A DNA stretch of 64,000 nucleotides. It comes from an uncultured delta proteobacterium. GTDB lineage: Bacteria; Desulfobacterota; WTBG01; CAIYCZ01. Each line of letters starts with the position of its first letter. The first letter of the stretch is position 1. The position numbers and the translations under genes are program-made. Under the pieces are notes generated by a model. That model was not told the DNA's origin, made no database searches, and saw nothing but the letters and a program-made list of their open reading frames with translations. Location of the stretch: assembly GCA_963803975.1 (NCBI GenBank), contig CAWDOY010000048.1:57642-121641 (forward strand). Direction: 5' to 3'. This document shows, in pieces, positions 2,473-52,219 of this stretch.

Positions 2473-2511
2473 GTTGCCATACTCCGGGCCGCTTGATAGG
2501 AATTCATTTTT

Positions 2512-2716
2512 ATTGATAGGAACTCGCTTTCGGATGAAGGAACTATAGGCCGCTGACTTATTGTGTGTCAATAAAAATTCCGCAGCAAGATATGAAGAGG
2601 GGTTAACCGGACAAATACCAACATCTCGTGGTGGGCATTAACCGCTGAAACTGCCGACTATGTATCATTTCTGCGAGAAGTCATTAAACATTAACTCGAT
2701 TGCAGACTATACCATG
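2512..2716 (-). promoter_or_regulatory. promoter-bearing repeat, copy A (TTGACA-18-TATAGT plus conserved leader)
   Basis: -35 at 2566-2571 and -10 at 2542-2547 on the minus strand; homologous to copies B-F. Confidence 0.8.
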
Positions 2717-19157: not shown

Positions 19158-19207
19158 GTAGGAGCGGCCTCCGGCCGCGAATTCTTCGCGCATGAATGCG
19201 CTCCTAC
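19158..19207. repeat. GTAG-type REP doublet (REPIN), left of RAYT
   Basis: GTAGGAGCGGCCTCCGGCCGCGAA...TTCGCGCATGAATGCGCTCCTAC. Confidence 0.85.
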
Positions 19208-19219
19208 AGGGATGTTGAT

Positions 19220-19708
19220 ATGAATTCGTTGAATTATTCACCAACCTGTAAAACAACTCCCGGACACCGGGCATTGCGTCACGGGCGATATTCTGAACCA
19301 AACCGCCTCTATCTGTTAACCACGGTAACATACCGGCGGCAACAATTCTTTACAGATTTATTTACCGCACGGCTCGTGATAACTGAAATGCGCCGGGTTC
19401 ATGATGAGGGCCTTATTGAATCGCTGGCATGGGTGCTCATGCCCGATCATTTACACTGGCTGTTCGGATTAACTGAACACGCAGATTTAAAAAAAGTCAT
19501 GCATCTGGTAAAAGGCAGGTCTGCGCACTATATAAATGAACGGCTCAGCCGGAACGGCAAGGTCTGGGATAAAGCATACCATGATCATGCATTGCGCAAG
19601 GAAGAAGATGTTAAAAGGGTCGCCCGGTATATTGTAGCCAATCCGCTGCGCAAAAGATTGGTTAAAAAAATCACCGATTATCCGTTATGGGATGCTATTT
19701 GGGTGTGA
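19220..19708 (+). CDS. rayT: REP-associated tyrosine transposase (RAYT, Y1 HUH)
   Basis: LRHGRYS, YLLTTVT, WVLMPDHLH (HUH), WDKAYHDHALR, YIVANP. Confidence 0.92.
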   Translation: MNSLNYSPTCKTTPGHRALRHGRYSEPNRLYLLTTVTYRRQQFFTDLFTARLVITEMRRVHDEGLIESLAWVLMPDHLHWLFGLTEHADLKKVMHLVKGRSAHYINERLSRNGKVWDKAYHDHALRKEEDVKRVARYIVANPLRKRLVKKITDYPLWDAIWV

Positions 19709-21511: not shown

Positions 21512-21549
21512 CGGATGAAATCTAACAGGACAAAGGTAAGGGAGGAATT

Positions 21550-23277
21550 ATGACAGAAAAAATCTATCGGGTAAACATGACGACACTCACGGCTGCGATT
21601 GAAGACGTGCCGGAGAAATGGAAGGTGCTTGGCGGCAGGGGCTTGACTTCAATCATTGTAGCCCAGGAAGTGAAACCCACCTGCAATCCGCTGGGCAAGT
21701 ACAATAAGCTTATCTTTGCTCCCGGCTTGCTTACCGGGACCATGTGCGCGAACTCAGGAAGGCTCTCGGCCGGCGCTAAAAGCCCGCTGACCGGCACCAT
21801 CAAGGAGAGCAACGCCGGGGGGACTGCGGCACAGTGTTTTGCCGATCTGGGCGTAAAGGCTCTTATTATTGAAGGCCTGCCGGAGAAAGACACCTGGTAT
21901 AATCTCCATGTTGACAAGAACGGGGTCGCGATACAGGAAGAAACCGAATTAGTCGGCAAGAAGAATTATGAAGTAATGCAAACGCTTAGCAAAAAGCATG
22001 GAGAAAAAATAGGGATTTTATCCATCGGCCCGGCAGGCGAGATGCGCATGGCAGCTGCCAATATCTCAGTAAAGGACCCTGATGGAAATATTCGCAGCCA
22101 CGGCCGCGGCGGTTTGGGCGCAGTCATGGGTTCAAAAAAGATAAAATATATCACCATTGATCCTGCCGGAGGCCCCGGCGTCGAGATTATCGATCAGGAA
22201 AAATTCAAGAAGACTGCCCGTGCGTTTGCAAAGGCGCTCCTGGAAAATCCCGTCAGCGGGCAGTCACTCAAAATGTACGGCACTGATGTTCTGGTGAATA
22301 TCCTGAATGAATCGGGGGGGCTTCCGACCAGAAATTTTCGCGAGGGCCAGTTTGCCGGAGCTGAGAAAATAAGCGGCGAGACCCTGCGCGAAACTATTAT
22401 AAAGCGCAACGGGAAACCGCATCACGCCTGTCATGCCGGGTGCGTCATTCAATGCTCGCAGGTATACAATGATAAGGATGGCAATTATGTGACCTCAGGT
22501 TTTGAGTATGAAACGATCTGGGGCTTTGGCGCCAACTGCTGTATAGACGATCTGGACATTATTGCCGAAGCAGACCACATGCTGGACGATATCGGGATTG
22601 ACTCGATTGAAACCGCGGTAGCCATGGGGGTTGCCATGGAAGCCGGGATTATTCCGTTTGGCGACGGTCCCGGCGCGCTCAAGCTGTTGAAGGAAATAGG
22701 TGAGGGCACGCCGCTGGGAAGGATTCTCGGCTCAGGGGCCGGAGCAGTCGGCAAGGCCTATGGTGTTACCAGGGTGCCGGTTGTTAAAAATCAGGGGCTT
22801 TCAGCCTATGACCCGAGGCCGGTAAAAGGTATGGGTATTACCTATGCGACGTCGACGATGGGCAGTGACCATACTGCAGGGTACTGTGTCCCGACCAATA
22901 TCCTGAGAATCGGCGGTTTTGTCGATCCCCTGAAGAAGGAAGGGGAGGTAGATCTGTCAAGAAAATTGCAGATAGGCACTGCATTGATCGACAGCACCGG
23001 TCTTTGTATTTTCGTTATATTCGCGATGCTGGATAAACCGGAAGTATTTTCCCTGGTGTTTGACATGATCAATGCCAAGTATGGTCTTGACATGACCGTA
23101 GATGACGGGCGTACCCTGGGCAGAAAAATACTGCGCACCGAGCATGAATTTAACCTGGCAGCCGGGTTCAGCAATAGAAATGACCGCCTCCCGGAATTTT
23201 TCGAGGAGCCGATACCGCCGCACAATGCGGTGTGGGATTTTACCACTGAAGAGATTGATTCATTCTGGGGTGTATAA
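21550..23277 (+). CDS. aor: aldehyde:ferredoxin oxidoreductase family protein (paralog 1)
   Basis: LGGRGL, KSPLTG, GRGGLGAVMGSK, FEYET, DDIGID, DSTGLC motifs. Confidence 0.93.
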   Translation: MTEKIYRVNMTTLTAAIEDVPEKWKVLGGRGLTSIIVAQEVKPTCNPLGKYNKLIFAPGLLTGTMCANSGRLSAGAKSPLTGTIKESNAGGTAAQCFADLGVKALIIEGLPEKDTWYNLHVDKNGVAIQEETELVGKKNYEVMQTLSKKHGEKIGILSIGPAGEMRMAAANISVKDPDGNIRSHGRGGLGAVMGSKKIKYITIDPAGGPGVEIIDQEKFKKTARAFAKALLENPVSGQSLKMYGTDVLVNILNESGGLPTRNFREGQFAGAEKISGETLRETIIKRNGKPHHACHAGCVIQCSQVYNDKDGNYVTSGFEYETIWGFGANCCIDDLDIIAEADHMLDDIGIDSIETAVAMGVAMEAGIIPFGDGPGALKLLKEIGEGTPLGRILGSGAGAVGKAYGVTRVPVVKNQGLSAYDPRPVKGMGITYATSTMGSDHTAGYCVPTNILRIGGFVDPLKKEGEVDLSRKLQIGTALIDSTGLCIFVIFAMLDKPEVFSLVFDMINAKYGLDMTVDDGRTLGRKILRTEHEFNLAAGFSNRNDRLPEFFEEPIPPHNAVWDFTTEEIDSFWGV

Positions 23278-23573: not shown

Positions 23574-25430
23574 TTACAAACCCTTAGCAATGCTCTCCAG
23601 ACCTAATTCTTTGATCCTTGCTGAAGAAGGTTTGCCGGTTACCGTATCCCATCCCAACTTGCCAAGGTAGTCGCTTATGAGCGTTTTGGCGTCAATGGTT
23701 ATATTGCAAGCGGGCCGGCCTGAAGCGGCGGGCTTCCGATCATTCTCCCGGGAATTTTCCAGTCAGACAGTTTCACTCCCTCACGGATATTAAACAGCAT
23801 CCGCATGGTGCCGATTCTCTCTCCAATGGTTTGAAGCTGCTCCAGGGAACAGGGCTGACCGGTCGTGTATTCCAGAAACGGGGGTATCATGTCCGCGCCA
23901 TACACCATAAAGGCAAAGTAGCACATGCCTGAAGCATTGATGACATGGGAGAGGTTACTCATATACCGGTGCAGATCGCTTTTCCCGGTGTACTGGTATT
24001 TTTCAACCATCTCGAAGGGAATGCCGGGGATGAAAAATCCGCTCTCAAGAAATGCCGAGCCGCCCTGCATGTGACGCGCGGGGGTGGCGTCAGCGCAGTA
24101 GCTCGTGGCGTAGCCGGGTGTGCAGCGGGGGTCATGCATGGGAATTTCCTGCCCGCCCACATGCATGGCGAATTGTTCCGATCCTTTACCGATCTTCTGC
24201 GCAGCCACGCGGGTTCCATCAGCAAGAATTTCTCCAAAGCCTTCTCTGCGGGCTATTTTTTCGCTCAGCGCGACTATGGCCTGATGGTTTCCCCAGGTAA
24301 GCTCCAGGCCGTCGGCATCGTTCTTTGAGAGGATGCCCTGCTCGTAACATTCAATAGCAAAGGCGATCGTTGCCCCGAGGGAGATGGTGTCAATCCCGGC
24401 GCGGTCACAGATATCATTTATCTTTATGATGGATTCCAGGTTGTCATTGAGACACAGGCAGCCCAGCGCGCCCAGGGTTTCATATTCCGGCTTGTGGGTT
24501 GTGCAGGCATACGGCCCGCTCGCGACGGTCATTTCTCCGCCGCAGGCAATGGGACATCCCCAGCACGCATATTTTTTCTGCTGAAAGGCAAGCAGACTCT
24601 GATCGCTGATGGCGGCCGCGTTGGGAAAATCTATCGCGCCTACTCCTTTCCAGTTTTTAACGGGCGATTCGCCATTGGCGGCAAACATGGCAGTGACTCC
24701 GCAGGTGCCCAGATTGGAGAAGAGCTGAAACGTCGGGCTCTGCTGACCTGCAGCAATAAGTGTTTTGCGCAGGTTCTGGGCCATCTCTTCATTTGCCAGC
24801 GGGATTTTGCCGGTACCTTTAACGACGATAGCTTTCAGCTTTTTTGAGCCCATGAGCGCCCCTAAGCCGGAGCGCGCAGCCGCACGCCACTTGTCATTAA
24901 TAATACTGGCTATGAGGGAACGTTTTTCACCGGCCGGACCAATCGAGGCAACGCGGATATCAGCGCCATGTTCTTTTTTCAGCCGGTCTTCCAGTTCATT
25001 GGTATCTAAACCGACATACGGGGCAGCATCTCGCAGCTCAAGTTTTCCGTCCTCTATGAAGAGATTAACCCACGCATTGCTCGCACCTTTAAAAAAGATG
25101 GCGTCAAAACCTGCCCGCTTCAATGCAGGGCCGAAAAATCCTCCTGAATTAGCATCTCCCCAGGCCCCGGTGAGCGGGGATTTACCCATCACGGTATAAC
25201 GCGATGAACTTACTGCCGGCGTCCCGGTCAGCGGGCCCGGTTGCAAACCCCAGTATGTTTTCCGGGTCAAGCGGCTTTACCCCGGGCTTTTGCGCATCGC
25301 AAATCAGTTTTAAACCTATCCCATACCCGCCGAGATACTGTTCATAGAGAGCATTTCCCGGTTCAATGACCTCAATCCTGCCGTTTGAGAGATCTATCCA
25401 TGCTATTTTTCCAATAGTGCCGCCTCGCAT
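23574..25430 (-). CDS. aor: aldehyde:ferredoxin oxidoreductase family protein (paralog 2), frameshifts near 25240 and 23700
   Basis: MRGGTIGKIAWIDLS start after AGGAGG; RAAARSGLGALMGSK, PEYET, DRAGID; ends GLESIAKGL*. Confidence 0.9.
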
Positions 25431-25732
25431 TGTTAATCTCCTCCTTTTAACCAACCATGGTTTTTGTTATAAACAGTTTTATTATGAATACCAGCAATAA
25501 CTACACGAACTATAAAACGTTACCTTATAAAATACAATCGGAAAAACAATAAGGGAGCCTGTGAAAAACCACTTTTATTAACAACCTGACCGTGCGCGCA
25601 TGGCTCTATAAGGGACTGCTGGACGGGGAGGGGAATTAATGATAAATATAACAGAAATAAATTACGCAGCGCTGTGGCCGGGATATACGGTGCATAGCTG
25701 AAAGAATAAAAAATCTGCAGTTATTGATTACT

Positions 25733-26986
25733 ATGAAAACAAAAAAATCCTTACAGGGTGAAGTTGACGAAGCCGGGCGATTAATTCTTCCGGAAGAAGT
25801 GATTTTCCGCTACGGCTTACAGCCTGGCGCGAAGGTAAGCATCAGCGAGGAGGGGAGCGGAATTCACGTTCATCAGCCGGTTACGCATTTGCGCAAAGTG
25901 TATATCGAGCCTACCACGCAGTGTAATCTTAACTGCCGTATGTGCATTCGCAACACCTGGGAAGAGCCCTTGGGACAGATGACCGAAGCAACGTTTGACT
26001 GCATTCTAAAAAGTCTGCGAGCTTTCTCACCCCCGCCAACGGTCATATTTGGCGGCTTCGGTGAACCGCTGTCACACCCGCGTATTGCTGAAATGGTAGC
26101 AGCAGTGAAAGAGCTCAACGCGCCGGTTGAATTGATTACCAACGCAACCGTGCTTACAAAGGACCTCTCGCGGCATCTTATAGAAGCAGGGCTTGATGTG
26201 CTGTGGGTTTCACTCGACGCGGCAACAACAGAGGTTTACGGAGATGTTCGCCTCGGGGCCATACTGCCTCAGGTCATATCAAATGTGGCATGTTTTCGCG
26301 ATATGCAGCGGTCAACCAATCCAGCGCCCCTGCACTTAGGGATTGTTTTTGTGGCTATGAAGCGCAATATAGCTGATTTGCCAGCAGTGATGCGGCTGGG
26401 CAGGCAACTGGGCGCGGACCGCTTTATGCTTACTAATATCCTGCCATACTCGCAGGAGCTGACAGAGGAGGTATTATATGCCCGCAGCCTGAGTGAGCCG
26501 CCAACGCCGCCTTCTGCGATGGTACCGCATTTAAATTTATCCAGAATCGACATAAACGAGGAGACGCGCACGGCACTCTCTAAAATTCTGAGCAGCACGC
26601 GCGATGTACATTCTAACCAGAGCAGCGGCGCGGATATGAGCAACTCGTGTCCGTTTATTGAGAGCGGGTCAACTGCAGTGTGCTGGGATGGCAGCGTAAG
26701 CCCCTGTCTTCCTCTGCTGCACAGTCACACCGCCTTCATTCATGAGCGCAAGCGTTTTTCGCGACGTCATGTCATCGGCAATGTTAGTGAACATGATTTG
26801 CAGGAATTATGGAATACGCCGGAGTATATCGCGCTGCGCAAACGGGTCCAGGCATTTGATTTTTCGCCCTGTGTTTTTTGCGGCGGCTGTAATTTTTCAC
26901 AAACCAATGAAGAGGACTGCATCGGAAATCTCTTTCCGACCTGCGGCGGCTGCCTCTGGGCGCAGGGCGTTATTCAATGTCCCTGA
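25733..26986 (+). CDS. radical SAM/SPASM protein resembling tungsten-cofactor oxidoreductase maturases; N-terminal AbrB-like segment
   Basis: CNLNCRMC, GGFGEP, Cys-rich C-terminus (CPF...PC...CVFCGGC...C...CGGCLWA); divergent from AOR. Confidence 0.85.
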   Translation: MKTKKSLQGEVDEAGRLILPEEVIFRYGLQPGAKVSISEEGSGIHVHQPVTHLRKVYIEPTTQCNLNCRMCIRNTWEEPLGQMTEATFDCILKSLRAFSPPPTVIFGGFGEPLSHPRIAEMVAAVKELNAPVELITNATVLTKDLSRHLIEAGLDVLWVSLDAATTEVYGDVRLGAILPQVISNVACFRDMQRSTNPAPLHLGIVFVAMKRNIADLPAVMRLGRQLGADRFMLTNILPYSQELTEEVLYARSLSEPPTPPSAMVPHLNLSRIDINEETRTALSKILSSTRDVHSNQSSGADMSNSCPFIESGSTAVCWDGSVSPCLPLLHSHTAFIHERKRFSRRHVIGNVSEHDLQELWNTPEYIALRKRVQAFDFSPCVFCGGCNFSQTNEEDCIGNLFPTCGGCLWAQGVIQCP

Positions 26987-30435: not shown

Positions 30436-31224
30436 GTGATCGTTATGGCTATAGATAATTTACCCATGGAACCAAAACCATTCCTGCCATTTCCTAAACA
30501 GTCCTACGCACTTCCATACCAGGAGCTTTATAAAAACATAAACGGAGACGGTTCATCCTGTACTGAAAAATCTGAACATGCTGATACCTGGATGGCACAG
30601 GTACACTGTTGTCGCGGACCAGTTCTGGAGAAGGCAACGTACACTTTTCTCCATATTGTCAATGGCACCGTGGGCGGAAGCCCGGGAAGCATCAGCCGGT
30701 TTGAAAGCATAGCGTATCCTGCCAATCCCAGGATCCCGGCACTTTTTGTCATGGCCGATATAAATGAAACCGCAGAGATGGGGCGGTACCTTGTTTTTTA
30801 TCCTGACCTGATTATCCAGGACGGTCAGGCGCATAAACAGGAGAAGAATATTTTCTCAGCTGCTTTAAAAGCTGTTTGCGAAAAGCATAATCAGGATTTT
30901 GAGCAGCATAACAGCTTTATCATCGGTCGAGGTGTTTTTGGCGGCTGTGCTGGAGAGTGCGGTTTGATGGGTTTCTTTCAGGAATCTGACATCCCGTTTG
31001 TTGAGGAAATGCTTTCAGCTATTCCTTCGGTCTATTGCCAGTTGCTTTCAGATTGCAGCTATGAACCAGCGAATGATGCTGACTATAAAGCACTGTATGC
31101 AACGCGTGCACGGCTTATTGAATGGATGATTGCTGAAAGTTTAGGAACAAAAATTATGCGGGAAAACAGCATCCCTCTGTCTATAGTTGAGGCATCCAGT
31201 TTCCCGCCGGTGGTAAAGTATTAA
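30436..31224 (+). CDS. coproporphyrinogen III oxidase (HemF)-like protein, divergent
   Basis: RGPVLEKA, YPANPRIP and terminal FPPVVKY resemble HemF RG.VFEKA, HP.NP.VP and LPP.V.W. Confidence 0.5.
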   Translation: MIVMAIDNLPMEPKPFLPFPKQSYALPYQELYKNINGDGSSCTEKSEHADTWMAQVHCCRGPVLEKATYTFLHIVNGTVGGSPGSISRFESIAYPANPRIPALFVMADINETAEMGRYLVFYPDLIIQDGQAHKQEKNIFSAALKAVCEKHNQDFEQHNSFIIGRGVFGGCAGECGLMGFFQESDIPFVEEMLSAIPSVYCQLLSDCSYEPANDADYKALYATRARLIEWMIAESLGTKIMRENSIPLSIVEASSFPPVVKY

Positions 31225-31413
31225 AAGCAACTGGTGAATGGGTCAACAGGTGGAGAGATAAAGAGTGCAAAAGGATCAGGTATTAGGATGGAAACACCAT
31301 AGTAGTTTTTCTGCTTCTTTGGTCTCCTCGTCTTTTTGCGTTTTTAGGAGAGCAAAAACTCACAAAAAAATTCCTGATTTCTTGAGTTCCAGATTTTTAT
31401 TGTTTATTCCCGT

Positions 31414-31446
31414 AAAAAAAGGGCTGCAGGAAGGACCTGCAGCCCT
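31414..31446 (-). terminator. intrinsic terminator
   Basis: agggctgcagg-loop-cctgcagccct with a T-tract on the minus strand. Confidence 0.75.
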
Positions 31447-31517
31447 GAACAAATGTACACCTCGCCAGTGCGGAGATGTGGTTATTATACCGGTAACACG
31501 CTGGTTACCGGAAACTT

Positions 31518-31941
31518 TTACGCACTTACTTCATCTACATCTTCCTCTACTTCCACAAACTTTAAGGCATCGCTGGTGCACCATTTGACACAGGATGGAT
31601 CCGGCGGCTCACCGCACAAATCACATTTTAAAGGAACTTCGGTTCCCGGCTCAAAAAAGAACGGTTTTTCCGGACACGCTGCCCGGCATAGTGCGCACGT
31701 ATCATAGCGTCTCACCCTTAATCGTTATAACATTTCTTGACGTGCACTTTGCGTCAGTATACGGCCCGGATATTACTGGATAGTTATTGCCCTTTTCCAT
31801 ATCCACAAAAACTTTTATGCGGGATAAACGGGGGTTGACGGTATTTTCCTCAGTATGTGCCATGGCACACGCCGTCTCACAGTGTCGACAGCCGGTACAT
31901 TTATCAAAGTCTATAAAGATTTTTTTGACTGTCTGCTTCAT
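31518..31941 (-). CDS. BamC-like 4Fe-4S ferredoxin subunit, one frameshift near 31710
   Basis: DKCTGCRHCETAC...NPRLSRI...YDTCALCRAACP...PLKCDLC...CVKWC...DAL cysteine spacing resembles BamC. Confidence 0.75.
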
Positions 31942-32271
31942 AAGTACCTCCTGTTATATAAAGGTTAGCAATAGTATCCTTCGGTTACCCGTTCGCCATG
32001 GAGCAGAGACGACTCATTCTCAGCAATGCACCATGAGCCGGAAAATTCTTTCAGCAAACAGCTATAGCGTAGTAAAGCAAATTCCCCGGACATTAGTATT
32101 CTGCTCCGTCGGTTGTCAGTACTTGCTATTCGCTGCTATAGTAATGTCAGTCGTATTTAGTTGCTGCCGCAAAAGGAAGAGGAGGAGTGAAACCAGAAAC
32201 AGTATGCTACGGTTCAAAGAAAAATACAGTATGGTTTGTTTAACTCTTTATTAATTTATCGGTCGTTTATA

Positions 32272-34101
32272 TTATAACCCTAATTCTGCCAACTTGCCAG
32301 GGGAAGGAACACCGTCTGCGTTCCATCCTCGTAATTCATAATACTGGGGCAGCATTTCATCAAGTTTAGAAACGCGCCCCTTAGCAGGACCCTCAGGCAT
32401 AGGCTCTTTTAAAAACCGGGAGGGCAGGGTATCATCAGCTTTGGTAATGCCGGCCTTGAGATTAAATAACCGCTCCATGTTCCACATCCGCTCTCCGGCC
32501 AACAGCACATTTTCTGCTGGTATAGCCAGCGCCGGTACAAACCTCAAGCATGTCAACCATATCGTCAACGCTGAAACCCTCAGCAAGGCTGACAAACAGG
32601 CACAGCCCTGATGAATCAATGACACCGGTAAGATCCTGAAATGCTTTAATGACCGCTGGTTTGCCCTTGCTCATCGAACGGATCAAGCTTCTGATTTACT
32701 CCCAGTATCTCGACCGCAATGCCATAGCTGCGCACATGGCAGGCGCCCCTGTTTGACGTGGCATAGCTGAGGCCCATTGACTGGACGCCGCGCGGGTCAT
32801 AGGCAGGAAGCCCCTGCTTTTTTACCCCCATGAAGAGTTCCGGGTGGCCGTATTTTTCCGCTAATGCATAGCCTCCTTCAGCCATGACATCTCCAATGCC
32901 CTCGCGCAGCCCCATCATTGACGTCAGTTTAACCAGTGCCTCGCCGTTGCCAAAGTTTGCCTTAAAACCGATGTCTTTCTCAGGCAGGTATCCTTTTTCA
33001 AACAGCTCCATGAGGCAGGCTACTATATTTCCCACATCTATGGTATCCATGCCTAATTGGTTACAGAGATAATTGGCCTTGGTAACAGGGGCGAGATCGT
33101 TTATCCCGCAGGATGCTCCCATAAGGGCAACGGTTTCATATTCAGGCCCTTCTCCTTCTCCTTCATATTTTTTATCTTTAATCACCGTGGACCTGCCGCA
33201 GGCCATAGGACAGGCAAAGCAGCCCTTATTTCTCTTTAAAATGGTGTCCCTGATGTTCTCGCCACTGATTTTCATGGCATCCGGAAAGACGCCGGTTTGA
33301 AAGTTATTGGTGCACAGGATGCCGCTCTCATTTATGATATTGACCAGTACTGATGTGCCGAATATGGGCAGTGCCTGAGCAGTGACCTTCGCCACATCCG
33401 ATCTGTTTTTGGCAATGCTTGCCTTAATTATGTCTCTGAATTTGTTCCGGTCCGGAACAGGAATACCCTTGGTCCCCATCACAGCGATTGCTTTTAAATT
33501 TTTTGCGCCCATCACCGCGCCGACGCCGGAGCGCCCGGCTGCGCGCGATTTGTCGTTTATAATACAGGCGACCCGGCACAGCTTTTCTCCGGCCGGCCCG
33601 ATGCTTGCAATCCGGAACTCTCGGCCTTTCCACTGGCTGCCGATCTCAGCCCGGATCAGGTCTTCGGTCTCATCAGTCTGTTTCCCCCAAAGATCAGCTG
33701 CTGATTTAAATTCAATCACATCATCCTTGATCATCAGATAAACCGGTTCCGGGGCTTTGCCCTCAAAGAATAATCATATCGTATCCGGCATACTTCATTT
33801 CGGGCCCGAAATAACCGCCGGAATTGGAACAGGCAATGCAATTATTAAGCGGCGATTTTGTTACGACCATGTAGCGGGAGCTGGCAATCAATCCCGTTCC
33901 TGTCAGGGGGCCTGTTGCAAAGATCAGCTTGTTGTCCTCGCTGAGCGGGTCCACCGTTGGATCAACTTCATCGACAAGATATTTTTCCGCAAGCCCTCTT
34001 CCGCCCACATAATCTTTTGCCATATCAGGGTCCAGATCTTCAACAGCAAAGCTTGAATTGCTCAAATCAACTCTTAAAATTTTACCGATCCAGCCATTCA
34101 T
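32272..34101 (-). CDS. aor: tungsten aldehyde:ferredoxin oxidoreductase (paralog 3, canonical type), several frameshifts
   Basis: [62 protein letters not shown]. Confidence 0.92.
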
Positions 34102-34178
34102 AATGCGTGCTCCTTTCTGAGATAGGAACCTTTAAAGATTCTTTTTATTTTGAACTACCTTATAGCGTATATGTGCAG

Positions 34179-34255
34179 ATAGTATGCAGGAACATATTTT
34201 ATGTCAAGTATAAATATATTGTTTCTATCATGCTGATAAAACATATATTTTATCA
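34179..34255 (-). promoter_or_regulatory. sigma70 promoter of aor3 with upstream palindromic operator
   Basis: TTGACA (34202-34207)-17-TACTAT (34179-34184); TGATAAAA-N6-TTTTATCA at 34234-34255. Confidence 0.65.
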
Positions 34256-34294
34256 AGCAGCAAGCAGCGCTGCACACCATGCAGCGCGTGACGG

Positions 34295-35119
34295 TTAAAA
34301 CTCGGGCAGATTTTTCAGTGTCGCATAATCAAAGACCGGCCCATCCTTGCACACATAGAAATTGCCCACATTACACCTGCCGCATTTCCCGATGCCGCAC
34401 TTCATCCTGTTTTCCAGCGTAGTAAAAATCTGCTGTTCGGAAAAGCCCAGTTCAAGAAGGTTGTGTATCACATATTTAATCATTACCGGCGGGCCGCAGG
34501 TGATGGCAATGGTATTCTCGGGAGACGGCTTGATGCGCAGGACGTTGTTGGGCACAAAGCCGACAAACCGCTTCCAGTCCGGGTCTGCCATATCAATAGA
34601 CAGGTGCACCTTTAAGTCATTGCGTTTTTCCAGTTCAAACAGTTCAGTTTTATAGCACAGATCGCCGGCGCTGCGCGCGCCGTAAATAATATCAAACTGT
34701 TCAAAATCATCTCTGTTGTCCAGGATATACTGGACTATCGGCCGCAGCGGCGCCTGGCCAATGCCGCCGCCGATGGTTACAATGTTTTTGCCTTTCCATG
34801 CTGCAATGGGGAAGCCGTTGCCGTATGGTCCCCGGAGGGTTATCGTTTCACCTGCTTCACAGTCATGCAGGGCCGATGTCACCTTCCCCAGCTTCATGAT
34901 GCTGAATTCAAGATACTCGCTCTGCGTCGGGGAAGAGGCAATGGAAATCATGCTTTCACCCACCCGCAGAATGCCGACCATAGCACACTGGCCCGGTTTC
35001 TGATTTAATGCCTGGCCATTCTGCAGGGCCACTTTAAAGGTCCTGATGGGACGCGCGCCGTTGGTTTCCTGGCGTATTTCAACAATAGTAGCTTTCTCTG
35101 GAAGATACGGGTTCATCAT
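34295..35119 (-). CDS. flxA: FAD/NAD-binding FlxA/AsrB-like subunit
   Basis: PGQ, GESMISI, RGPYGNGF, GGGIGQAP, CGPP, MKCGIGKCGRC 2Fe-2S motif. Confidence 0.85.
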   Translation of the reverse strand: MMNPYLPEKATIVEIRQETNGARPIRTFKVALQNGQALNQKPGQCAMVGILRVGESMISIASSPTQSEYLEFSIMKLGKVTSALHDCEAGETITLRGPYGNGFPIAAWKGKNIVTIGGGIGQAPLRPIVQYILDNRDDFEQFDIIYGARSAGDLCYKTELFELEKRNDLKVHLSIDMADPDWKRFVGFVPNNVLRIKPSPENTIAITCGPPVMIKYVIHNLLELGFSEQQIFTTLENRMKCGIGKCGRCNVGNFYVCKDGPVFDYATLKNLPEF

Positions 35120-36139
35120 GCAGCGCCTTTAACCGCTAGCAGATTTTCAATGATGTCCTCATTGACCGGGCACAGGGTAATGCATCTGCCGCAGCCCACG
35201 CAGCCGAAGGTGCCGAAGGTATCAACATTGAATTTGAATTTATGATAGATTCTGTTTTTAAGCCGTTCCACCCGTGTCGGCCTTGGATTGTGGCCTGACG
35301 CGTGCAGGGTATATTCCTTGTACATACAGGAGTCCCACACCCTGACTCTTCTGCCTCTTTTTTTTGCCATGGGCTCATCCTGCATATCAAAGCAATAGCA
35401 GGTGGGACAGGTGTAGGTACAGATCCCGCAGCCAATGCACTTTAACGCCATTTTTTTCCAGACCGGGTGTTCAAATATTCTGCCCAGCGTATCGGTCACT
35501 CCCGCAAGGTCTATTGCCGCTTAATGCTGCGTTCGGCGTTCTGCGACAGCTCCTCGCCCTGTTTGATATCTTCTGCCGATGCGGCAATAAACAGAGAGGA
35601 TGTTTTATCTAATTATTTCTTTTCCTTTTTCTGAAAGCACTGCAACCAGATACCGGTCACCGAGATCGGTACACAGCAGGTCAAGCCCCTCCTGTCCGCA
35701 CGGGTTGCCTCCCACCGAGGTACAGAAGCAGTTTGCAAACGGCTCCGTACAGGCCATGCCAATCAGCATGGCTTTATTTCTGCGCGTCAAGATAATACGG
35801 ATCCGGGATATCGCCTTTAAAGACCGGGTCAAGCAGAGAAAAGCTGCGGGCATCACAGGGGCGAACGCCAAACAAAATGCTTTGTTTTATGTCCTGGGCA
35901 TCCGGCGCCTGTATCTGATCATTCTGATCATAGGAGTAAAGCGGCTCGGTTTGCGGGAAGATCGTATGCTTTATGATTTTTGCCTGATGGGCGAGGTCCG
36001 GCGAATTATTGCGGCAATCCAATAATGGTTGAAAAAGGGTGTCCCCGTCTTTTTCTATTGGTGCCCAGAGCAAGTAGTCAGTAGATAGAGAGGATAAAAA
36101 ATCTTTTATTGAATCTTTCTGCAGTACAAACACATCCAT
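35116..36139 (-). CDS. flxB: 4Fe-4S dicluster FlxB/AsrA-like subunit, frameshifted
   Basis: FGVRPCD, NCFCTSVGG, CIGCGICTYTCPTCYCF, CVGCGRCITLCP across three ORFs. Confidence 0.85.
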
Positions 36140-36149
36140 GCGCGAAACC

Positions 36150-37127
36150 TTATAAAATGAAACCCTGAGGATCTTCCGTGTGAAAGGTTGTCAGGAGCGA
36201 CTTTGCTTTTGGATCCTTGCCTGATTCATAGCCAAAAAGCTCTTTTGCATCTTTTTCCAGCTTGCGGTTAAGCTTCATCAGCGGAAGGTTCATGGGGCAC
36301 ACGCGCTCGCACTCCCCGCAGCCGATACATCTTCCGGCAAGGTGAAAGGTGCGGATAATCTGGAACATGAAATTTTCCGAGGTATCAACAGAACGACGCA
36401 GCCACTGGGGACTCAGGCTGTCCAGACTGCAGATGGTTGAATAGCAGAGCGGGCACACATTCCTGCAGGCATAACACCGGACGCACTTGGAGAACTGCTG
36501 CTGCCAGTAGGCAAGCCGTTCTTCTACGGGTAATGCTTCGAACGCCGCTATATCATCATAATGGGCCGGCCGGGCTGGGAGCTTGTCCCCGATCAGCTTA
36601 TCGTAGATGAGCGGCGTGGGATACTGGCATACCTTGCACAGCTCGGCAAGCAGTTCCTCTTTGGGCACGGTATGCGACTCTCCCTGAAAGGAGATGATAT
36701 AGTTCCCGTTTTCTTCAGTCACTTCTGCTGGTTCAGTCACCTGGGGAAAGCGGGCTTCAATCTTTCGCTGATCAATGACGCCCTTGCACGAAACACCAAT
36801 GATATACAGCTTATCCCGCGGCACACCCTTTTCTTCTATCAGCAGATTAATTGCCCGGGAATCACAGCCGCGCGCAACAATGGCTATTTTTGAAGGCTTC
36901 ATTGCCTGTTCCGTGAGACCGGGGAGGGTTTCTTCCATCATAACATATTTAACCAGGCTCATATTGCACAGAGGGGAAATAATGAGCTGGTCAATATCCT
37001 CCTTCGGCTCAATAAATGCGGGGGAGACTCTGAAGCCGTAGCTGCCTTTCTTATAGCCGATCAGATATTTTACGTCTTTGCGGCCAAGCGCCCGCGCTGC
37101 TTCATCTTTCAGCTTTTGCACACTCAT
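36150..37127 (-). CDS. flxC: 4Fe-4S dicluster FlxC/FdhB-like subunit
   Basis: RGCDSR, CVRCYACRNVCP, HLAGRCIGCGECERVCP. Confidence 0.85.
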   Translation of the reverse strand: MSVQKLKDEAARALGRKDVKYLIGYKKGSYGFRVSPAFIEPKEDIDQLIISPLCNMSLVKYVMMEETLPGLTEQAMKPSKIAIVARGCDSRAINLLIEEKGVPRDKLYIIGVSCKGVIDQRKIEARFPQVTEPAEVTEENGNYIISFQGESHTVPKEELLAELCKVCQYPTPLIYDKLIGDKLPARPAHYDDIAAFEALPVEERLAYWQQQFSKCVRCYACRNVCPLCYSTICSLDSLSPQWLRRSVDTSENFMFQIIRTFHLAGRCIGCGECERVCPMNLPLMKLNRKLEKDAKELFGYESGKDPKAKSLLTTFHTEDPQGFIL

Positions 37128-37546
37128 ACCGCTTCCCGTAGATAGGATTGCTGGGGACCTATTTCCTGTAATTCTTTGGTTATCTCAGTTATGACATCAG
37201 CAAACTTCTTTCCTTCTGACGCTGAAACCCAGCTCATGCGCAGCCGCAGCGGGTTAATGCCGCTGAACTCAAGGAGACTCCGCAGCATGGTAAACCTGCG
37301 CCGCGCAAGATAATTGCCACTCACATAGTGGCATTCGCCGGGGTGTCAGCCGGACACCAGTACGCCGTCCGCTCCCTCCCGCAGTGCCTGCACGACAAAC
37401 AGCGGGTTTACTCTGCCGGTGCACATGACGCGCACCACCTTCACATTGGGCGGGTAGTGCATGCGGGTCGTGCCGGTTAAATCTGCGCCGGCGTATGAAC
37501 ACCAGTTGCAGAGAAATGCGACGATGTTCGGTTCAAATTCACTCAT
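37124..37546 (-). CDS. mvhD: MvhD/FlxD hydrogenase iron-sulfur subunit with selenocysteine (UGA at 37346-37348)
   Basis: [18 protein letters not shown], then SG-UGA-HPGECHY continuing in frame to 37124 (141 codons including stop). Confidence 0.9.
37315..37348 (-). promoter_or_regulatory. candidate bacterial SECIS element
   Basis: 12 nt after the UGA: stem TGCCACT, loop ATGTG, stem AGTGGCA. Confidence 0.65.
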
Positions 37547-39515
37547 AGCGTTCTCCAAGAGCTGCAATAACTGAAAGCATTTGTTCGTCGGTAAATGATT
37601 TTTGCTGCATCGCGCCGCAGAGGCACGCAGCGACACATTGACCGCAGCCCTTACAAACAACTTCATTAACCGCTGCAATCTGCAGAAGGTGGCCATCGCG
37701 CTCAACTGTTTTTAACTCAATAGCCTCATAGGGACACACCTCGACACACAGCTCACAGCCGCGGCAGGTACGCTCATCAGCAAATGAAACAAGTGCCTCG
37801 GTTTTTACTTTTCCCTGAGCCAGCGGGGTGCAGGCTCGTGATGCTGCGCCACAGGCCTGCGCAACCGTATCAGGAATATCCTTTGGCCCCTGGCAGCACC
37901 CGGCCAGGAATATGCCGTCACTTGCGGTATCCATCGGGCGCAGCTTGGGATGTGCTTCATAGAAGAACTTGTCCGTTGATTGCGATAACTTTAACAACTT
38001 TGCAATCACCGGGCTGTCAGATCGCGGCACCATGCCGACGGCAAGCACCACGAGATCAGCTTCCACTTCAACGGGCTGACCCAGCAGGGTATCTTCCGCC
38101 CTGACGATGAGTTTATCGCCTCTTTTAAAGACATCGGAGACATTGCCCCGGCGGTACATAATGCCTTCTTCTTTTACCCGGTCATAAAACTCCTCAAAGC
38201 CTTTGCCAAATGCCCGCACGTCTATGTAAAATGCCGTGATGCGCGCGTCCGGTATCTTGTCTCTTACCAGATGCGCCTGTTTTGCGGTGTACATGCAGCA
38301 GACCCGCGAACAGTATTCATTGCCGATCGATTTATCACGTGAGCCCACGCACTGCACAAACACCACATCTTTGGGCTTCTTCCCGTCAATCATGATGTCC
38401 CCGAGGGTGGGGCCTGACGCAGAGGATAGCCGCTCAAACTCCAGTCCGGTTATCACATTCGGGTACAGCCCGTAGCCCAGTTCCGGCTTCAAGCGCGGAT
38501 CAAACGTATCAAACCCGGTTGCGACAACGATCGTGCCCACATCAACATCAATGAATTTTTCCTTTTGCTTGAGATCAATTGCCTTTAAATCTTTACATAC
38601 CGGCTCACATTGCTTGCACTCCCGTCTCAGGGTATACCGGCAATAGGCTGGATTGATAACGAAACGCGCCGGCACGGCCTGGGGGAAGGGAATGTACAGG
38701 CACTTGGTTTTAGAGAGGCTCAGGTTAAATTCATCGGGCATCTCTACCGGACAGTACGCGACACAGGTGCCGCAGGCATTACATTTATCTTCTACAATGT
38801 AGCGCGGTTTCTTTTTAATGGTGACCTTGAAATTTCCAACGTATCCTTTAACATCCGTCACTTCAGAGTAGGTGTGCATTTCAATATTGGGATGATTGCC
38901 GACATCCGACATTTTGGGCGTCAAAATACAGGCTGAGCAGTCAAGGGTGGGGAAGGTTTTGTCGAGCTGCATCATATGGCCGCCAATGCTGGGCTCTTTT
39001 TCCACCAGATAGACCTTGAACCCCTTGTCCGCAATTTCCAGTGCAGCCTGAATGCCGGCGATGCCGCCGCCTATGACCAGCGCGCTGGGGATAACATCAA
39101 CTTCTTTTTCTTCCAGCGGCTCAAGGAGGCCGGCTTTAGCTACTGATGCGGCAAGCAGCCCCCGGGCCTTTTGCGATGCTTTCGCCTTATCTTCATGGAC
39201 CCAGCTGCAATGTTCCCGGATATTGGCTATCTCGAGGCAATACGGATTAAGGTCGGCACTACGCAAGACCTTGCGAAACGTCATCTCATGCATGCGCGGT
39301 GAGCACGAAGCCACAACAATACGATTGAGCCCCAATTCCTTAATGTCTTTTTTGATCAGCTCCTGCCCGGGATCCGAACAAAGGTATATATAATTTTTAG
39401 CAATGGTGACGTGCGGAAGCGTAGCGGCAAACTGGGTAAGTTTTTCAACGTCGACCGTTGAGTTGATATTAATACCGCAATGACAGATATACACACCGAG
39501 CTTTACGTTTCCCAT
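37539..39515 (-). CDS. hdrA: heterodisulfide reductase subunit A
   Basis: [58 protein letters not shown]. Confidence 0.95.
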
Positions 39516-39523
39516 GCGCAGCG

Positions 39524-40657
39524 CTACTCCATTACCTGGGTTACCAGTTCCATAATATCACAGACTTTGATCCGGTCCTCAACGCCCGTGCTCTTTACCG
39601 CGTCCTCAAGAGTCAAGATGCAGAACGGGCATGCGGTCGCGAGTATCTCGGCGCCCCGCTCAAGCGCGTCCTGTACCCGGATGGTTGCCGTACGCTCCTT
39701 TGCTTCGTGGGCTTCTATCCACATTCTGCCGCCGCCTCCTTCACAGCACAGGGAACGTTCGCGCGCCCTGTCCAGCTCGACAAATTTAATGCCCGGAATA
39801 CTTTGCAGGATTGCCCGCGGCTCATCGTAAATCTGATTCTGTTTTCCCAGAAAACAGGGATCATGATAGGTAACCGTTTTTTCTAATTTCTTGCTGAACT
39901 TCAGCTTCTTTTTCTTGATCAGCTCTGCAACAACCTGGGTGTAATGCTTGACATCAACGGTGAGTTCAGGATATTCGTTTTTGAAGGTGTTATAGCAGTG
40001 GGGCGATGTGGTAATAATCTGCTTGATGGGAAACTGCTTGAACATTTCCAGGTTCATCTCTTTGAGCGCATCAAACGACCAGATGTCGCCCATGCGGCGG
40101 ATTTCATTGCCGCAGCACACTTCATCATTGCCCAGGGTGCCAAAATTGATTCCCGCTTTGGTGAGAACGGCGGCAAGGGCGATTGCTACTTTCTGCAGCC
40201 GGGAGTCGAAAGCCGGCGTGCAGCCCACATAGTAGAGAACCTCCGCATCGGCAATACTTTTAATCGTCAGGCCCTGGGCCCATTCCGAGCGCTTCTCCTG
40301 GCCGATGCCCCACGGGTTCCCCCGGACTGAAATGCTTTTCAAGACATCCCGGATTTTGGGAGGCAGCTGGCCGTCTTCCACCAGCACGCTGCGCATGCTG
40401 ATAATCATGTCAGTATGTTTTATGTCTTTCGGGCAGCGCTTAACACACGTCGAACAGGTACTGCAATCCCATAGCGTCTCTTTCTCATAGGCGATATGTT
40501 CTCCCTCGCTGTTCAGGGTATCATAGATAAGTTTGCGAACATTAAAATGAGGAGATACCGTGGATACGGGACAACCCCCGGTGCATTTACCGCATTGTAT
40601 GCAGGGGAACAGCGGCTTTCTTTCAATATGCGCTAAACGATCGATCTCAGATGACAT
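39524..40657 (-). CDS. HdrD/BamD-like Fe-S protein (two 4Fe-4S motifs plus two CCG domains)
   Basis: CIQCGKCTGGCP, CSTCSTCVKRCP, YVGC, CCG, YHDPC, CCEGGGG, TACPFC. Confidence 0.88.
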   Translation of the reverse strand: MSSEIDRLAHIERKPLFPCIQCGKCTGGCPVSTVSPHFNVRKLIYDTLNSEGEHIAYEKETLWDCSTCSTCVKRCPKDIKHTDMIISMRSVLVEDGQLPPKIRDVLKSISVRGNPWGIGQEKRSEWAQGLTIKSIADAEVLYYVGCTPAFDSRLQKVAIALAAVLTKAGINFGTLGNDEVCCGNEIRRMGDIWSFDALKEMNLEMFKQFPIKQIITTSPHCYNTFKNEYPELTVDVKHYTQVVAELIKKKKLKFSKKLEKTVTYHDPCFLGKQNQIYDEPRAILQSIPGIKFVELDRARERSLCCEGGGGRMWIEAHEAKERTATIRVQDALERGAEILATACPFCILTLEDAVKSTGVEDRIKVCDIMELVTQVME

Positions 40658-40808
40658 AGCTTAGCCTGTTGCCATATGTTGATATCAACCAATTTTTACG
40701 AGGTGATGAAGTGCTTTTTATTTTGCAGCAGCATTCACACTCAATGCACCATGTTCCGATTCCGTTTATGCTGAGACGCAGTATGGCAGGGCAAAAATGA
40801 CTGCGGTC

Positions 40809-40837
40809 ATATTACAGATCTAAATTCTTTATGTCAA
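40809..40837 (-). promoter_or_regulatory. sigma70 promoter of the hdr-flx operon
   Basis: TTGACA (40832-40837)-17-TAATAT (40809-40814). Confidence 0.6.
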
Positions 40838-41049
40838 GACGATTTTAACATCATGCTAAAAAAATTGCAACGGTTAATAAAGAGACGTGCGAATAACAGA
40901 CAGTGGAGCTATCAGCCCAGCCGGCGCGAAGGAAAGAACCTGCCGGATTTTAATTTTAAGATATTCCTTGTATGCTCTAATTTGATTATAGACTTATTCG
41001 CTGAATTCTATTACATATGAAACAATGTCTAATAAGAAAGGGCTCGATT

Positions 41050-44239
<3,190 letters not shown>

Positions 44240-50144: not shown

Positions 50145-50310
50145 GAGAGTATACGGTGAACGATCCGCTGGTGGCTTTTATCATTGATTTTTCTATATGG
50201 TTTCATTACAGTTACGGACATCATGCTCTCACTATGTGCTGCCTGCTGAGCAATGCACTTGATGCAGACAGGATGATTACACGCTCACCCAATACATTTG
50301 TCCGCTCATC

Positions 50311-51420
50311 ATGAATATGAATATATTATTCTTGTTTGATCACTATTATCCATATATTGGGGGGGCTGAGGTTGTTAATAAAAATATAGCAGAATATTTC
50401 AGTAAAAAACATAATGTTACCATTGTAACAAAAAAATTTAAAGGCGTAAAAGCCGGTATTGAGATATTACATGGCGTGAAAATTTGCCGTACACTCAATG
50501 TGCCGCGTCTGCTGCACAGTGTAGTTGCATATGCACGCGCACATAAATTTGCGGACAACGCTGATATAATAATTTCTGCAACGTATGCTTCCGGACTCGC
50601 GGGATACTGGCTGGCCAGGACCTTCAAAAAGAAATCGATTTTACTGGTACATGAGATTTTAGACGAGCATTGGAGATTCTTTAAGCTATTTCACTTCCTT
50701 TATAGATGGTATGAGCACTATATTGTTACCCGTTCCTTTGATCGGTATATAGTGTTCAGCAACTATACCAGGAAGAAATTAACAGAAAAGGGCATACCTG
50801 GAATCGCGCATTTCTGTTATTTATCACGGCGTAGATGACACGCTTTTTTACCCCCGGCCAATCGACAAATCTTTGCGCCGGTCCATTGCCGGCGACTGCC
50901 CGTTTGTGTATCTCTATTTCGGACGTCCGGGGGGCTCAAAGGGTCTCCCGTACCTTATTAACGCGGTACCACAAATATCAGAAGCGATTCCCGGCAGTAA
51001 GCTGGTAGTAATCTTAAGCCGGGAAACAAAGGCAGAATACCGTCTTGCAATGCGCCTCATAGATACGGTAAATAAGCATGGCAATATCAAGGTGCTTGAT
51101 CCGGTCCCCCTTGAACGCTTGCCGGATTATATAAATATCGCGGATACAATAGTCATACCCTCTCTCTCTGAAGGCTTTGGATTTTCAGCTGTCGAAAGCT
51201 GTATGATGGGTAAGCAGGTGGTCTTTACAGAAACAGGCTCGCTGCCTGAAGTCACTTTTGGTAAGCTGGTTACCGTAAAAAAGGCAGACTCTCATTCTAT
51301 AGCTAATGGAATAATTCGCATGTATAATGGCGATTATGAATACAGCGAGCCCAAAAAGTTCACATGGGAGCAAGCCTTTAAGAGATATGAGGAAGTTATT
51401 TTACAGCCTTGGCCGCATGA
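50311..51420 (+). CDS. GT4 glycosyltransferase, frameshift near 50800
   Basis: YYPYIGGAE, YFGRPGGSKG, PSLSEGFGFSAVE, GSLPEV. Confidence 0.85.
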
Positions 51421-51448
51421 GCCCGCTAAAAGAACAGAATTAAAAAGC

Positions 51449-52219
51449 ATGGTAAGCATTTCCTTAATAATTGAACTCGCGAAAAGAGATTATACGGAGC
51501 GTTTTGCCGGCAATGTGCTCGGATCTGTGTGGGCCTTGATCTGGCCGCTCGTGAATCTCTTTATTTATATAATTGTTTTTGGCAAGCTTATGGGAGGCAG
51601 GCTCCCCGGCAGCTCTGATATTTACTCCTATAGCATATATGTTACCGTCGGCCTTGTGCCCTGGATAGCATTTTCTAATTCCATTGCCCGTTCAACATCA
51701 GTTTTTTTAGACAAGAAACACCTGATATCTAAGATCAAAATGTCTCTTCCCTCCCTGCTCATATATATAATTCTTTCTGAAACCATTACCTTTATAATAT
51801 CCATGCTGTTGTTTTTCGTTTTTCTTTTTTTCAGCGGCTATCAATTCCATGCCAGCATCCTGTTAGTCCCGTTTATCTATTATCTCCAGCAGTTATTTGC
51901 TTTTGGCTTTGGGCTCCTTACCGCTACCTTGACCGTATTTATCAGAGACCTCAAGGAAGCAGTGGGGATTTTCCTGCAGCTCTGGTTCTGGTTTACCCCG
52001 ATTGTCTATGTGCAGGATATTCTTCCTGACGCCTTAAAAAAGATTATAGTTTATAATCCTGCCTATATCATAATTAACGCGTACCAGCGCATCTTTTTGT
52101 ATAATGAGTTTCCGGCATTTAATTCCCTGATAGTTCTTACGGTAATTACCCATAGTATTATTTTAATTGCCTATATGACATTCCGCAGTCTTGAGAAGGA
52201 TGTGAGAGATTTTTTATGA
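51449..52219 (+). CDS. wzm: ABC-2 polysaccharide export permease
   Basis: KRD...R..G.VLG..W..I.PL, VFIRD, WFWFTPIVY, NP. Confidence 0.9.
   Translation: MVSISLIIELAKRDYTERFAGNVLGSVWALIWPLVNLFIYIIVFGKLMGGRLPGSSDIYSYSIYVTVGLVPWIAFSNSIARSTSVFLDKKHLISKIKMSLPSLLIYIILSETITFIISMLLFFVFLFFSGYQFHASILLVPFIYYLQQLFAFGFGLLTATLTVFIRDLKEAVGIFLQLWFWFTPIVYVQDILPDALKKIIVYNPAYIIINAYQRIFLYNEFPAFNSLIVLTVITHSIILIAYMTFRSLEKDVRDFL

Follow-up and report, generated by a model that had tools for sequence, protein, structure and literature searches.

A cluster of eight genes was analysed on the minus strand of a 64,000-nucleotide (nt) stretch of DNA, referred to below as the window, from an uncultured delta proteobacterium of sediment (GenBank assembly GCA_963803975.1, contig CAWDOY010000048.1, positions 57,642 to 121,641). 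The genes, at window positions 31518-40657, encode an HdrD-like protein, HdrA, an MvhD-type adaptor, FlxC, FlxB, FlxA, a tungsten aldehyde:ferredoxin oxidoreductase (AOR) and a small ferredoxin (gene fd) resembling BamC of class II benzoyl-CoA reductase (BCRII). The set is conserved beyond this genome, and its AOR falls in a dedicated subclade of the AOR family. Chances are judged to be about even that the eight genes form a conserved unit for a Bam-like, HdrA-type electron-bifurcating complex, which would link NADH, the acid/aldehyde couple and a high-potential partner at the HdrD-like subunit. The formation of such a complex, its wiring, its direction and its third partner are proposed by analogy with BCRII.

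The original prediction, made from the letters of the DNA, had described a tungstoenzyme that looks like a true AOR rather than BamB, a BamC-like ferredoxin, a single HdrD-like protein in place of HdrBC, a selenocysteine (Sec)-containing MvhD and an NADH module of the Flx type. All of these identifications hold, and open reading frames (ORFs) and Pfam matches place the eight genes where they had been located, all on the minus strand (Table 1). What had been overlooked is that three of the genes, aor, flxB and fd, are interrupted in the assembled sequence by seven single-base insertions or deletions (indels). The identities of these broken genes were judged from the intact orthologs of relative G003, which are 86-91% identical to the window pieces over most of their length (62-80% over the first two FlxB pieces, 90% for the AOR).

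The best matches of the AOR in the PDB are WorL of the WOR1 enzyme AmWOR1 (9mqx_D, E-value 2.4e-214), P. furiosus AOR (1aor_A, 1e-203) and A. aromaticum AorB (8c0z_A, 7e-187). The matches to 1b25 (7.5e-98), 6x1o (4e-73) and BamB (4z3w_A, 1.5e-61, residues 6-419) are weaker. The similarity to solved AORs extends over the full length and exceeds that to FOR, WOR5 and BamB. In the alignment with 1aor_A, CFACPMAC is paired with CYACPIGC, PEYET with PEYES, GACHV with GGCHI and SGLCLF with AGLCLF, and the same motifs are present in the window pieces. The CxxCxxxC motif and the distal Cys are presumably the ligands of a [4Fe-4S] cluster, while EYE and CH are taken to belong to the active site. Intact orthologous AORs are 609-645 amino acids (aa) long. 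Judged by its sequence, the tungsten subunit is a canonical AOR of the clade of PfAOR, AaAOR and AmWOR1 WorL. BamB-like ring reduction was considered as a function and set aside, because the PDB matches and motifs identify the tungsten subunit as a canonical AOR.

The small ferredoxin is most similar to BamC, which its G003 ortholog matches over the full length (4z3w_E, 3.3e-38; query 2-134 against chain 7-141), compared with 2.4e-14 for AorA and 2.1e-9 for WorS (9mqx_E). Twelve cysteines are invariant in 58 homologs, which is enough for three [4Fe-4S] clusters. A search of 1.84 billion proteins yielded only 22 representatives of this small family at E <= 1e-30, and several members are labelled 'BamC' in JGI annotation. 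The gene is the sole copy in its own genome. An AOR and a BamC-like ferredoxin share one in-frame 726-aa ORF (L117:10001-12178) in a metagenome-assembled genome (MAG) of an uncultured 'delta proteobacterium', which may be either a natural fusion or an error. In L119, a close relative of this locus, the two genes merely abut.

The HdrD-like protein combines Fer4 and CCG domains in one chain, and its PDB matches to HdrC (1e-14) and HdrB (1e-4) suggest a fused HdrC+HdrB of BamD-like architecture. Two sets of cubane cysteines (C19/22/25/29 and C65/68/71/75) are invariant in 12 orthologs, as are nine Cys and one His in the CCG part (C146, C181, C182, H220, C221, C268, C304, C305, C343 and C346). 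For BamD, a preprint describes a ligand count of five Cys plus His and four Cys (10.64898/2026.04.10.717634); domain content and ligand count of the HdrD-like protein fit this account, the comparison being with the published description only. HdrA matches 8rvu_a (2.3e-241) and 5odc_A (1.5e-239) over residues 3-655 and is collinear with methanogen HdrA. At one codon of mvhD, TGA is found in the window and in G003 only, and Cys in 11 other orthologs. A hairpin (37333-37315) starts 13 nt downstream of this TGA, and a tRNA-Sec gene is present in the same genome (C39:1717-1814). MvhD is accordingly read as a selenoprotein in which Sec and Cys are exchanged among orthologs, with the Sec machinery judged from the tRNA-Sec gene. 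FlxA resembles HydG (sulfhydrogenase gamma) and AsrB, while FlxB resembles sulfhydrogenase beta and AsrA, both below NCBIfam cut-offs; the FlxB ortholog in G003 is a single 340-aa ORF resembling ShyB/HydB/AsrA. Orthologs of flxC occupy the same position in relatives. None of the eight proteins reaches the cut-off of any NCBIfam model.

The conservation of the gene set was assessed in 40 relatives, in which an AOR was counted as orthologous at an identity of at least 59% to the query piece. An orthologous AOR was found in 19 of them. Twelve of these 19 have the hdr-flx genes next to aor-fd, with two gene orders represented. The order of the window is seen in four, complete in G003, G004 and G023 and cut by the contig end in G002. 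In six others, aor-fd precedes hdrD-hdrA-mvhD-flxC-flxB-flxA; this arrangement is complete in G006, G029, G012 and G005, and runs up to the end of the available sequence in G008 and G011. In the remaining two (G013 and G014), double-HdrA-like genes, mvhD and flxCBA come after aor-fd. As for the other orthologous AORs, four stand with fd only, one (G007) is alone within 8 kb, and two are on contigs of 2.5-3.3 kb. The adjacency of aor-fd and hdr-flx, whose restriction to this genome would have spoken against the original prediction, thus recurs in relatives and in distant lineages as well. In a collection of genome contigs (genome_contigs), Hdr/Flx genes are found on the strand of the AOR at 15 of 79 AOR loci, and divergently oriented at one more (L071). 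According to record titles, linked loci include Desulfosarcina variabilis, Dehalococcoidales, Chloroflexota, NC10 and Acidobacteriota. The flanking genes at six loci yielded no further conserved member; consequently, the eight-gene set is self-contained.

HdrA ORFs of 1012-1026 aa with two HdrA-like halves were found only in distant clusters (L094, L117, L119, L069, L053, L085 and L078), of which L053 and L085 represent Chloroflexota. A fused, permuted double HdrA is the architecture that the BCRII preprint describes for BamE (10.64898/2026.04.10.717634). One of these clusters belongs to Desulfosarcina variabilis str. Montpellier (L094; NZ_CP159846.1 3760225-3782021) and contains hdrD, a 1022-aa double HdrA, mvhD, flxCBA, aor and fd. 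Just downstream of it, on the opposite strand, are two genes for electron-transfer flavoprotein (ETF), two UPF0261 genes, AMP-binding enzymes and a LysR regulator.

The relationship among the AORs was examined with two trees, both of which were obtained by quick methods and include kin rows that are not independent. FastTree was applied to 104 AORs (90 from loci, the window piece and 13 paralogs from the same genome). IQ-TREE was run in quick mode under LG+G4 on 95 rows, with nine of the 13 own paralogs omitted. All 25 Hdr/Flx-linked AORs are placed in one clade of 38 rows, supported at 99 by FastTree and recovered with the same 38 rows by IQ-TREE (SH-aLRT 97). The other 13 rows of the clade comprise one AOR with a divergent Hdr/Flx neighbour (L071), three on contigs shorter than 3.4 kb and nine that are unlinked. 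No Hdr/Flx linkage was found among the other 52 AORs from loci. In both trees, the Hdr/Flx-linked AORs fall in a dedicated AOR subclade.

The parallel to Bam drawn in the original prediction is borne out by the gene content, which matches Bam part by part, and the proposed wiring follows the path described for BCRII. In that enzyme, according to the preprint, electrons enter by the NADH module, proceed through BamF and reach BamE at its bifurcating FAD, from which the low-potential electron travels via BamC to the tungsten site and the high-potential electron via BamD to ETF (10.64898/2026.04.10.717634). In the present system, NADH would be oxidised at FlxA, and the electrons would move through FlxB and FlxC to the Sec-containing MvhD adaptor, from which HdrA would receive them at its bifurcating FAD. 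By way of the three clusters in the BamC-like ferredoxin, the low-potential electron would then arrive at the tungsten site of the AOR. There the acid/aldehyde couple would be handled at about -560 to -580 mV; a value of -560 mV is given for this couple in the text of an earlier study (PMC9304861). The HdrD-like subunit would serve as the exit for the high-potential electron, towards an acceptor encoded outside the locus. The original prediction had named ferredoxin as the third partner, which is unsupported: the account of BCRII in the preprint points the HdrD/BamD arm to a high-potential acceptor (10.64898/2026.04.10.717634). ETF is the leading candidate for this acceptor. No match to DsrC (PF04358) was found in the genome, which is 98% complete, and two of its six ETF-alpha loci adjoin HdrD-like paralogs. 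The system may also be reversible, with aldehyde oxidation and a reduced high-potential carrier yielding NADH. This reverse reaction is equally allowed; by arithmetic from standard potentials, the carrier would have to stand at about -60 mV or below. In G023, EutB, the large subunit of ethanolamine ammonia-lyase, is encoded in the same orientation as fd and about 1.3 kb downstream of it (L028:16293-17999), which hints weakly at the oxidative direction.

Several observations weigh against a single complex of this kind. Four of the 19 relatives (family f4: G030, G036, G034 and G022) carry aor-fd with no hdr-flx genes nearby. An ortholog of hdrD that is 74-77% identical lies at another locus in G030, G034 and G022, and in G030 and G034 hdrD-hdrA-mvhD-flxCBA is a separate six-gene unit, so the two modules can be unlinked. 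In the window, flxA and aor are separated by 193 nt with an inverted repeat and a promoter-like site, and aor and fd by 330 nt, so that co-transcription of all eight genes is not guaranteed. HdrA consists of one canonical protein and is not the fused double HdrA of BamE, and MvhD is shorter than BamF. No gene for the high-potential acceptor is present in the locus. Fusions of the ferredoxin to AOR, HdrA or HdrD were absent among longer proteins, and none was clear in the best 150 representatives, which include hits of 326 and 422 aa. Finally, three of the genes are frameshifted in the deposited sequence, as would be the case if they had been inactivated privately in this strain.

The unlinked modules, the gaps with the promoter-like site before aor and the lack of fusions in two database searches are what would be expected of two separate enzymes serving a shared pathway. 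One would be a WorLS-type AOR with a small iron-sulfur (FeS) subunit using free ferredoxin, the other a stand-alone Flx-Hdr NADH oxidoreductase, and the two would be neighbours through alcohol/aldehyde metabolism. This arrangement has a precedent of sorts in Desulfovibrio vulgaris, where Flx-Hdr, located beside adh, is described as tied to ethanol oxidation (PMC10084766). It is nevertheless considered unlikely, although far from negligible. The small subunit is BamC-like, of the type that bridges BamB to BamE in BCRII, and not of the four-cluster WorS/AorA type. The eight genes have stayed together through rearrangement and across distant lineages, and the linked AORs are confined to one subclade, although this subclade also includes the nine unlinked rows and the three on short contigs. 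Moreover, DsrC, the classical acceptor of Flx-Hdr, was not found in the genome. A different possibility is that the eight proteins do form one complex but are wired like the Bfu-type WOR1, with an aldehyde as donor, NAD+ (via Flx) and ferredoxin (at HdrA) reduced together, and the HdrD-like protein acting merely as a structural or relay subunit. The best solved relative of the AOR is indeed WorL of the bifurcating AmWOR1, and Wor-Bfu is reported to couple aldehyde oxidation to reducing NAD and ferredoxin at the same time (PMC9304861, PMC13328260). Such wiring would also agree with the NADH/ferredoxin/aldehyde scheme of the original prediction. It is, however, judged improbable. In HdrA-type enzymes, MvhD is the entry point of the two-electron partner, and the low-potential arm is formed by the inserted ferredoxin domain. 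This arm is where BamC docks in BCRII (10.64898/2026.04.10.717634). The full retention of the CCG ligands in the 12 HdrD-like orthologs, in turn, favours a working redox exit.

The frameshifts bear on whether the complex proposed here could operate in this organism at all. In the assembled sequence, the reading frame is broken into four pieces for aor, three for flxB and two for fd. The indels were placed by alignment to the orthologous region of G003, which has 79% nucleotide identity. The seven coding indels comprise six extra bases and a single missing one. They are located in flxB at about 35790 (+1), 35609 (+1) and 35515 (-1), in aor at about 33770, 32674 and 32516, and in fd at about 31709, each of these last four being an extra base. 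When the seven indels are removed in a script, a ferredoxin of 140 aa, an AOR of 608 aa and a FlxB of 340 aa result, with no internal stop. Near-identical contigs from five DNA runs of five studies (X1, X2, X6, X7 and X8) and from RNA-library runs (X18-X20) are free of the indels wherever they cover them. The base at 31707/8 is omitted in X1, X2, X6, X7, X8 and X18, the base at 33765-33768 in X8, X18, X19 and X20, the base at 35609/10 in X1, X2, X6, X7 and X8, and the base at 35789 in X8; a base is added at 35514/5 in X2, X6, X7 and X8. Over 32455-32739, the X1 and X2 contigs differ by two gaps and 0 or 1 mismatches, and X19 is similar. No public run could be recognised as the source of the assembly itself, the highest word share being 0.54.

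A decaying cluster, with seven genuine frameshifts that make pseudogenes of aor, flxB and fd, would agree with the deposited sequence, and the redundancy of about 25 AOR loci in the genome could permit such a loss. This explanation is regarded as very improbable. Apart from the seven bases, the three genes show no nonsense or larger lesions, and the contigs of the five DNA studies lack every indel that they cover. Like single-base differences from the public-run contigs also occur in an intergenic spacer, at 34159 and 34248-34262. Unrelated genes of the window are affected too: an AI-2E transporter gene is split (1416-2571, minus strand), a GT4 glycosyltransferase C-domain and an ABC-2 permease are in one ORF (50263-52219, plus strand), and a PGI ORF overruns its domain by about 150 aa into a convergent pyruvate kinase gene (41225-43153, plus strand). 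These three anomalies look like further single-base assembly errors. The second AOR gene of the window (23699-25466, minus strand) is likewise split by a frameshift, and the AFOR_N match is broken in two at 6 of the 25 AOR loci of the genome. Judged from the aligned sequences, the seven frameshifts are very probably assembly errors, so that the organism itself probably has intact copies of aor, flxB and fd.

Table 1. Features of the hdr-flx-aor-fd locus (window positions).
Feature	Position	Strand	Evidence or remark
hdrD-like, 377 aa	39524..40657	-	Pfam Fer4 families + 2 x CCG (CCG 1.2e-30)
hdrA, 658 aa, full-length	37539..39515	-	Pfam Pyr_redox_2 + Fer4; PDB 8rvu_a, 5odc_A
mvhD/flxD, 140 aa, in-frame TGA at 37346-37348	37124..37546	-	Pfam FlpD 5.8e-55 with TGA read through
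flxC, 325 aa, FeS protein	36150..37127	-	Pfam Fer4 families + weak FrhB_FdhB_C match
flxB, three frame pieces as assembled	35116..36139	-	Pfam Fer4_22 3.8e-35 on last piece
flxA, 274 aa, NAD(P)H/FAD/[2Fe-2S] subunit	34295..35119	-	Pfam NAD_binding_1, FAD_binding_6, DHODB_Fe-S_bind
flxA-aor spacer, 193 nt	34102..34294	-	Inverted repeat right after flxA stop + promoter-like site
aor, four frame pieces as assembled	32272..34101	-	Pfam AFOR_N + AFOR_C across pieces
fd, BamC-like ferredoxin gene, ~140 aa, two frame pieces as assembled	31518..31941	-	4Fe-4S protein
Promoter-like site upstream of hdrD	40809..40837	-	TTGACA-17-TAATAT; consensus match only
Promoter-like site before aor	34207-34179	-	TTGACA-17-TACTAT
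Terminator-like hairpin, 11-bp stem + T run, ~70 nt past fd stop	31420..31446	-	Strongest such minus-strand site in 31000-41200

From hdrD to flxA, neighbouring genes overlap or are at most 10 nt apart, with an overlap of 4 nt between the flxC start and the mvhD stop. The original prediction had noted the distance between aor and the ferredoxin gene and a promoter of its own for aor; the gap is as described, and a promoter-like site is indeed present (Table 1). The spacer between aor and fd (31942-32271) varies among relatives: against 330 nt in the window, it has a length of about 800 nt in G003 and of about 45-55 nt in both G004 and G023. In the RNA-library contig X18, fd is joined to the 3' end of aor, with 209 nt exchanged for 26 other letters. 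The RNA-library contigs cover parts of the genes; they show that the sequence of close relatives is present in RNA libraries and speak neither to transcript structure nor to transcript level. An Rfam scan of 31000-41200 at E <= 1 gave no match, hence neither a Moco/Tuco riboswitch nor another known RNA in the spacers. A second copy of the flxA-aor or aor-fd spacer was not found in the genome; thus, these spacers do not appear to be a repeated mobile element.

The genome as a whole has an unusually large AOR family for its 4.25 Mb, with 31 AFOR_N matches at about 25 loci. Two more AOR genes, with a radical SAM/SPASM gene beside them, lie in the window at about 6-10 kb from the cluster (21526-23277, plus strand; 23699-25466, minus strand; 25661-26986, plus strand). 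Radical SAM/SPASM genes are also found near aor in G004 (L024:4566-5750) and G029 (L121:17386-18000). HdrA has one other full-length paralog in the genome. The window also contains genes for transposases, IS200-like (Y1_Tnp) and IS1595-like, at 19196-19708 and 61935-62906 (both plus strand).

If the proposed complex exists, the range of Hdr-type bifurcation would come to include the acid/aldehyde couple, through a canonical AOR placed on an HdrA/Flx scaffold. Such a complex could explain how anaerobes manage to reduce acids, or to harvest the electrons of aldehydes, without a loss of ferredoxin, and it would provide a simpler model for the mechanism and origin of Bam. The idea is testable in a cultured carrier, Desulfosarcina variabilis (L094). 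The 'BamC' labels have a practical side as well, as metagenome surveys may count anaerobic aromatic-ring reduction too often, in cases in which an ordinary AOR is the catalytic subunit. A broader proposal is tentative, and more doubtful than secure: the system may represent a third class of tungsten bifurcating enzyme, an HdrA/Flx-driven carboxylate reductase/aldehyde oxidase found across several phyla. Starting from NADH, such an enzyme would attain about -580 mV with neither ATP nor reduced ferredoxin, by handing the partner electron on to ETF or a different high-potential carrier. It might also be the ancestral scaffold of BCRII, from which the latter would have arisen as the AOR changed into BamB, two HdrA became fused and BamGHI took the place of Flx.

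The bifurcating tungsten architectures described in the literature, as far as the portions available of these sources extend, are the Bfu-type WorABCSL and BCRII (PMC13328260, PMC12318220, PMC9304861). The available text of the 2026 classification of tungsten oxidoreductases (WORs) contains neither 'Flx' nor 'heterodisulfide' and names HdrA only for benzoyl-CoA reductase (PMC13328260). A search of the full texts available found no AOR with a BamC-like subunit on HdrD/HdrA/MvhD/Flx. Three known systems can be compared with the locus. WOR1 (WorABCSL) of Acetomicrobium mobile (9MQX; Class IV WORs) likewise has a large subunit of the canonical AOR clade, a small FeS subunit and a bifurcating module that uses NAD(H). 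However, its module is of the Bfu type (WorABC), whereas that of the locus is of the HdrA type, and no Bfu-type domain was found in the locus with Pfam. Its WorS holds four clusters and forms nanowires, in contrast to the ferredoxin of the locus with its 12 Cys and distant WorS match. FlxABCD-HdrABC of Desulfovibrio vulgaris shares with the locus the order hdr...flxD-flxC-flxB-flxA, the domains of FlxA, FlxB, FlxC and FlxD, HdrA and a link to alcohol/aldehyde metabolism. It differs in that the locus has HdrB and HdrC fused as the HdrD-like protein and includes an AOR and a BamC-like ferredoxin, while DsrC, the acceptor proposed for the D. vulgaris system, is missing from the matches in this genome.

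A parallel in overall composition is offered by BCRII of Geobacter metallireducens (Bam[(BC)2DEFGHI]2), although four of its parts differ from those of the locus. The tungsten subunit of the locus is a canonical AOR instead of BamB. Its HdrA is a single 658-aa protein, the fused form of about 1020 aa being restricted to distant versions such as L094, and its MvhD has 140 aa. The NADH module of the locus is FlxABC, which is sulfhydrogenase/AsrAB-like, whereas BCRII has BamGHI, which is HydABC/Bfu-like and NuoEFG-like. BamGHI-type domains were not found in the locus with Pfam or NCBIfam, and since the module is FlxABC, a second, confurcating flavin site is not expected. Both systems nevertheless combine a tungsten subunit of the AOR family with a three-cluster ferredoxin of the BamC type, a subunit of the HdrD type (BamD-like in the locus by comparison with the published description) that bears CCG domains along with motifs for two cubane clusters, a bifurcating flavoprotein of the HdrA type and a Sec-containing adaptor of the MvhD type. 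In both, these parts are accompanied by an NADH-oxidising module, and the substrate couple lies below the potential of ferredoxin.

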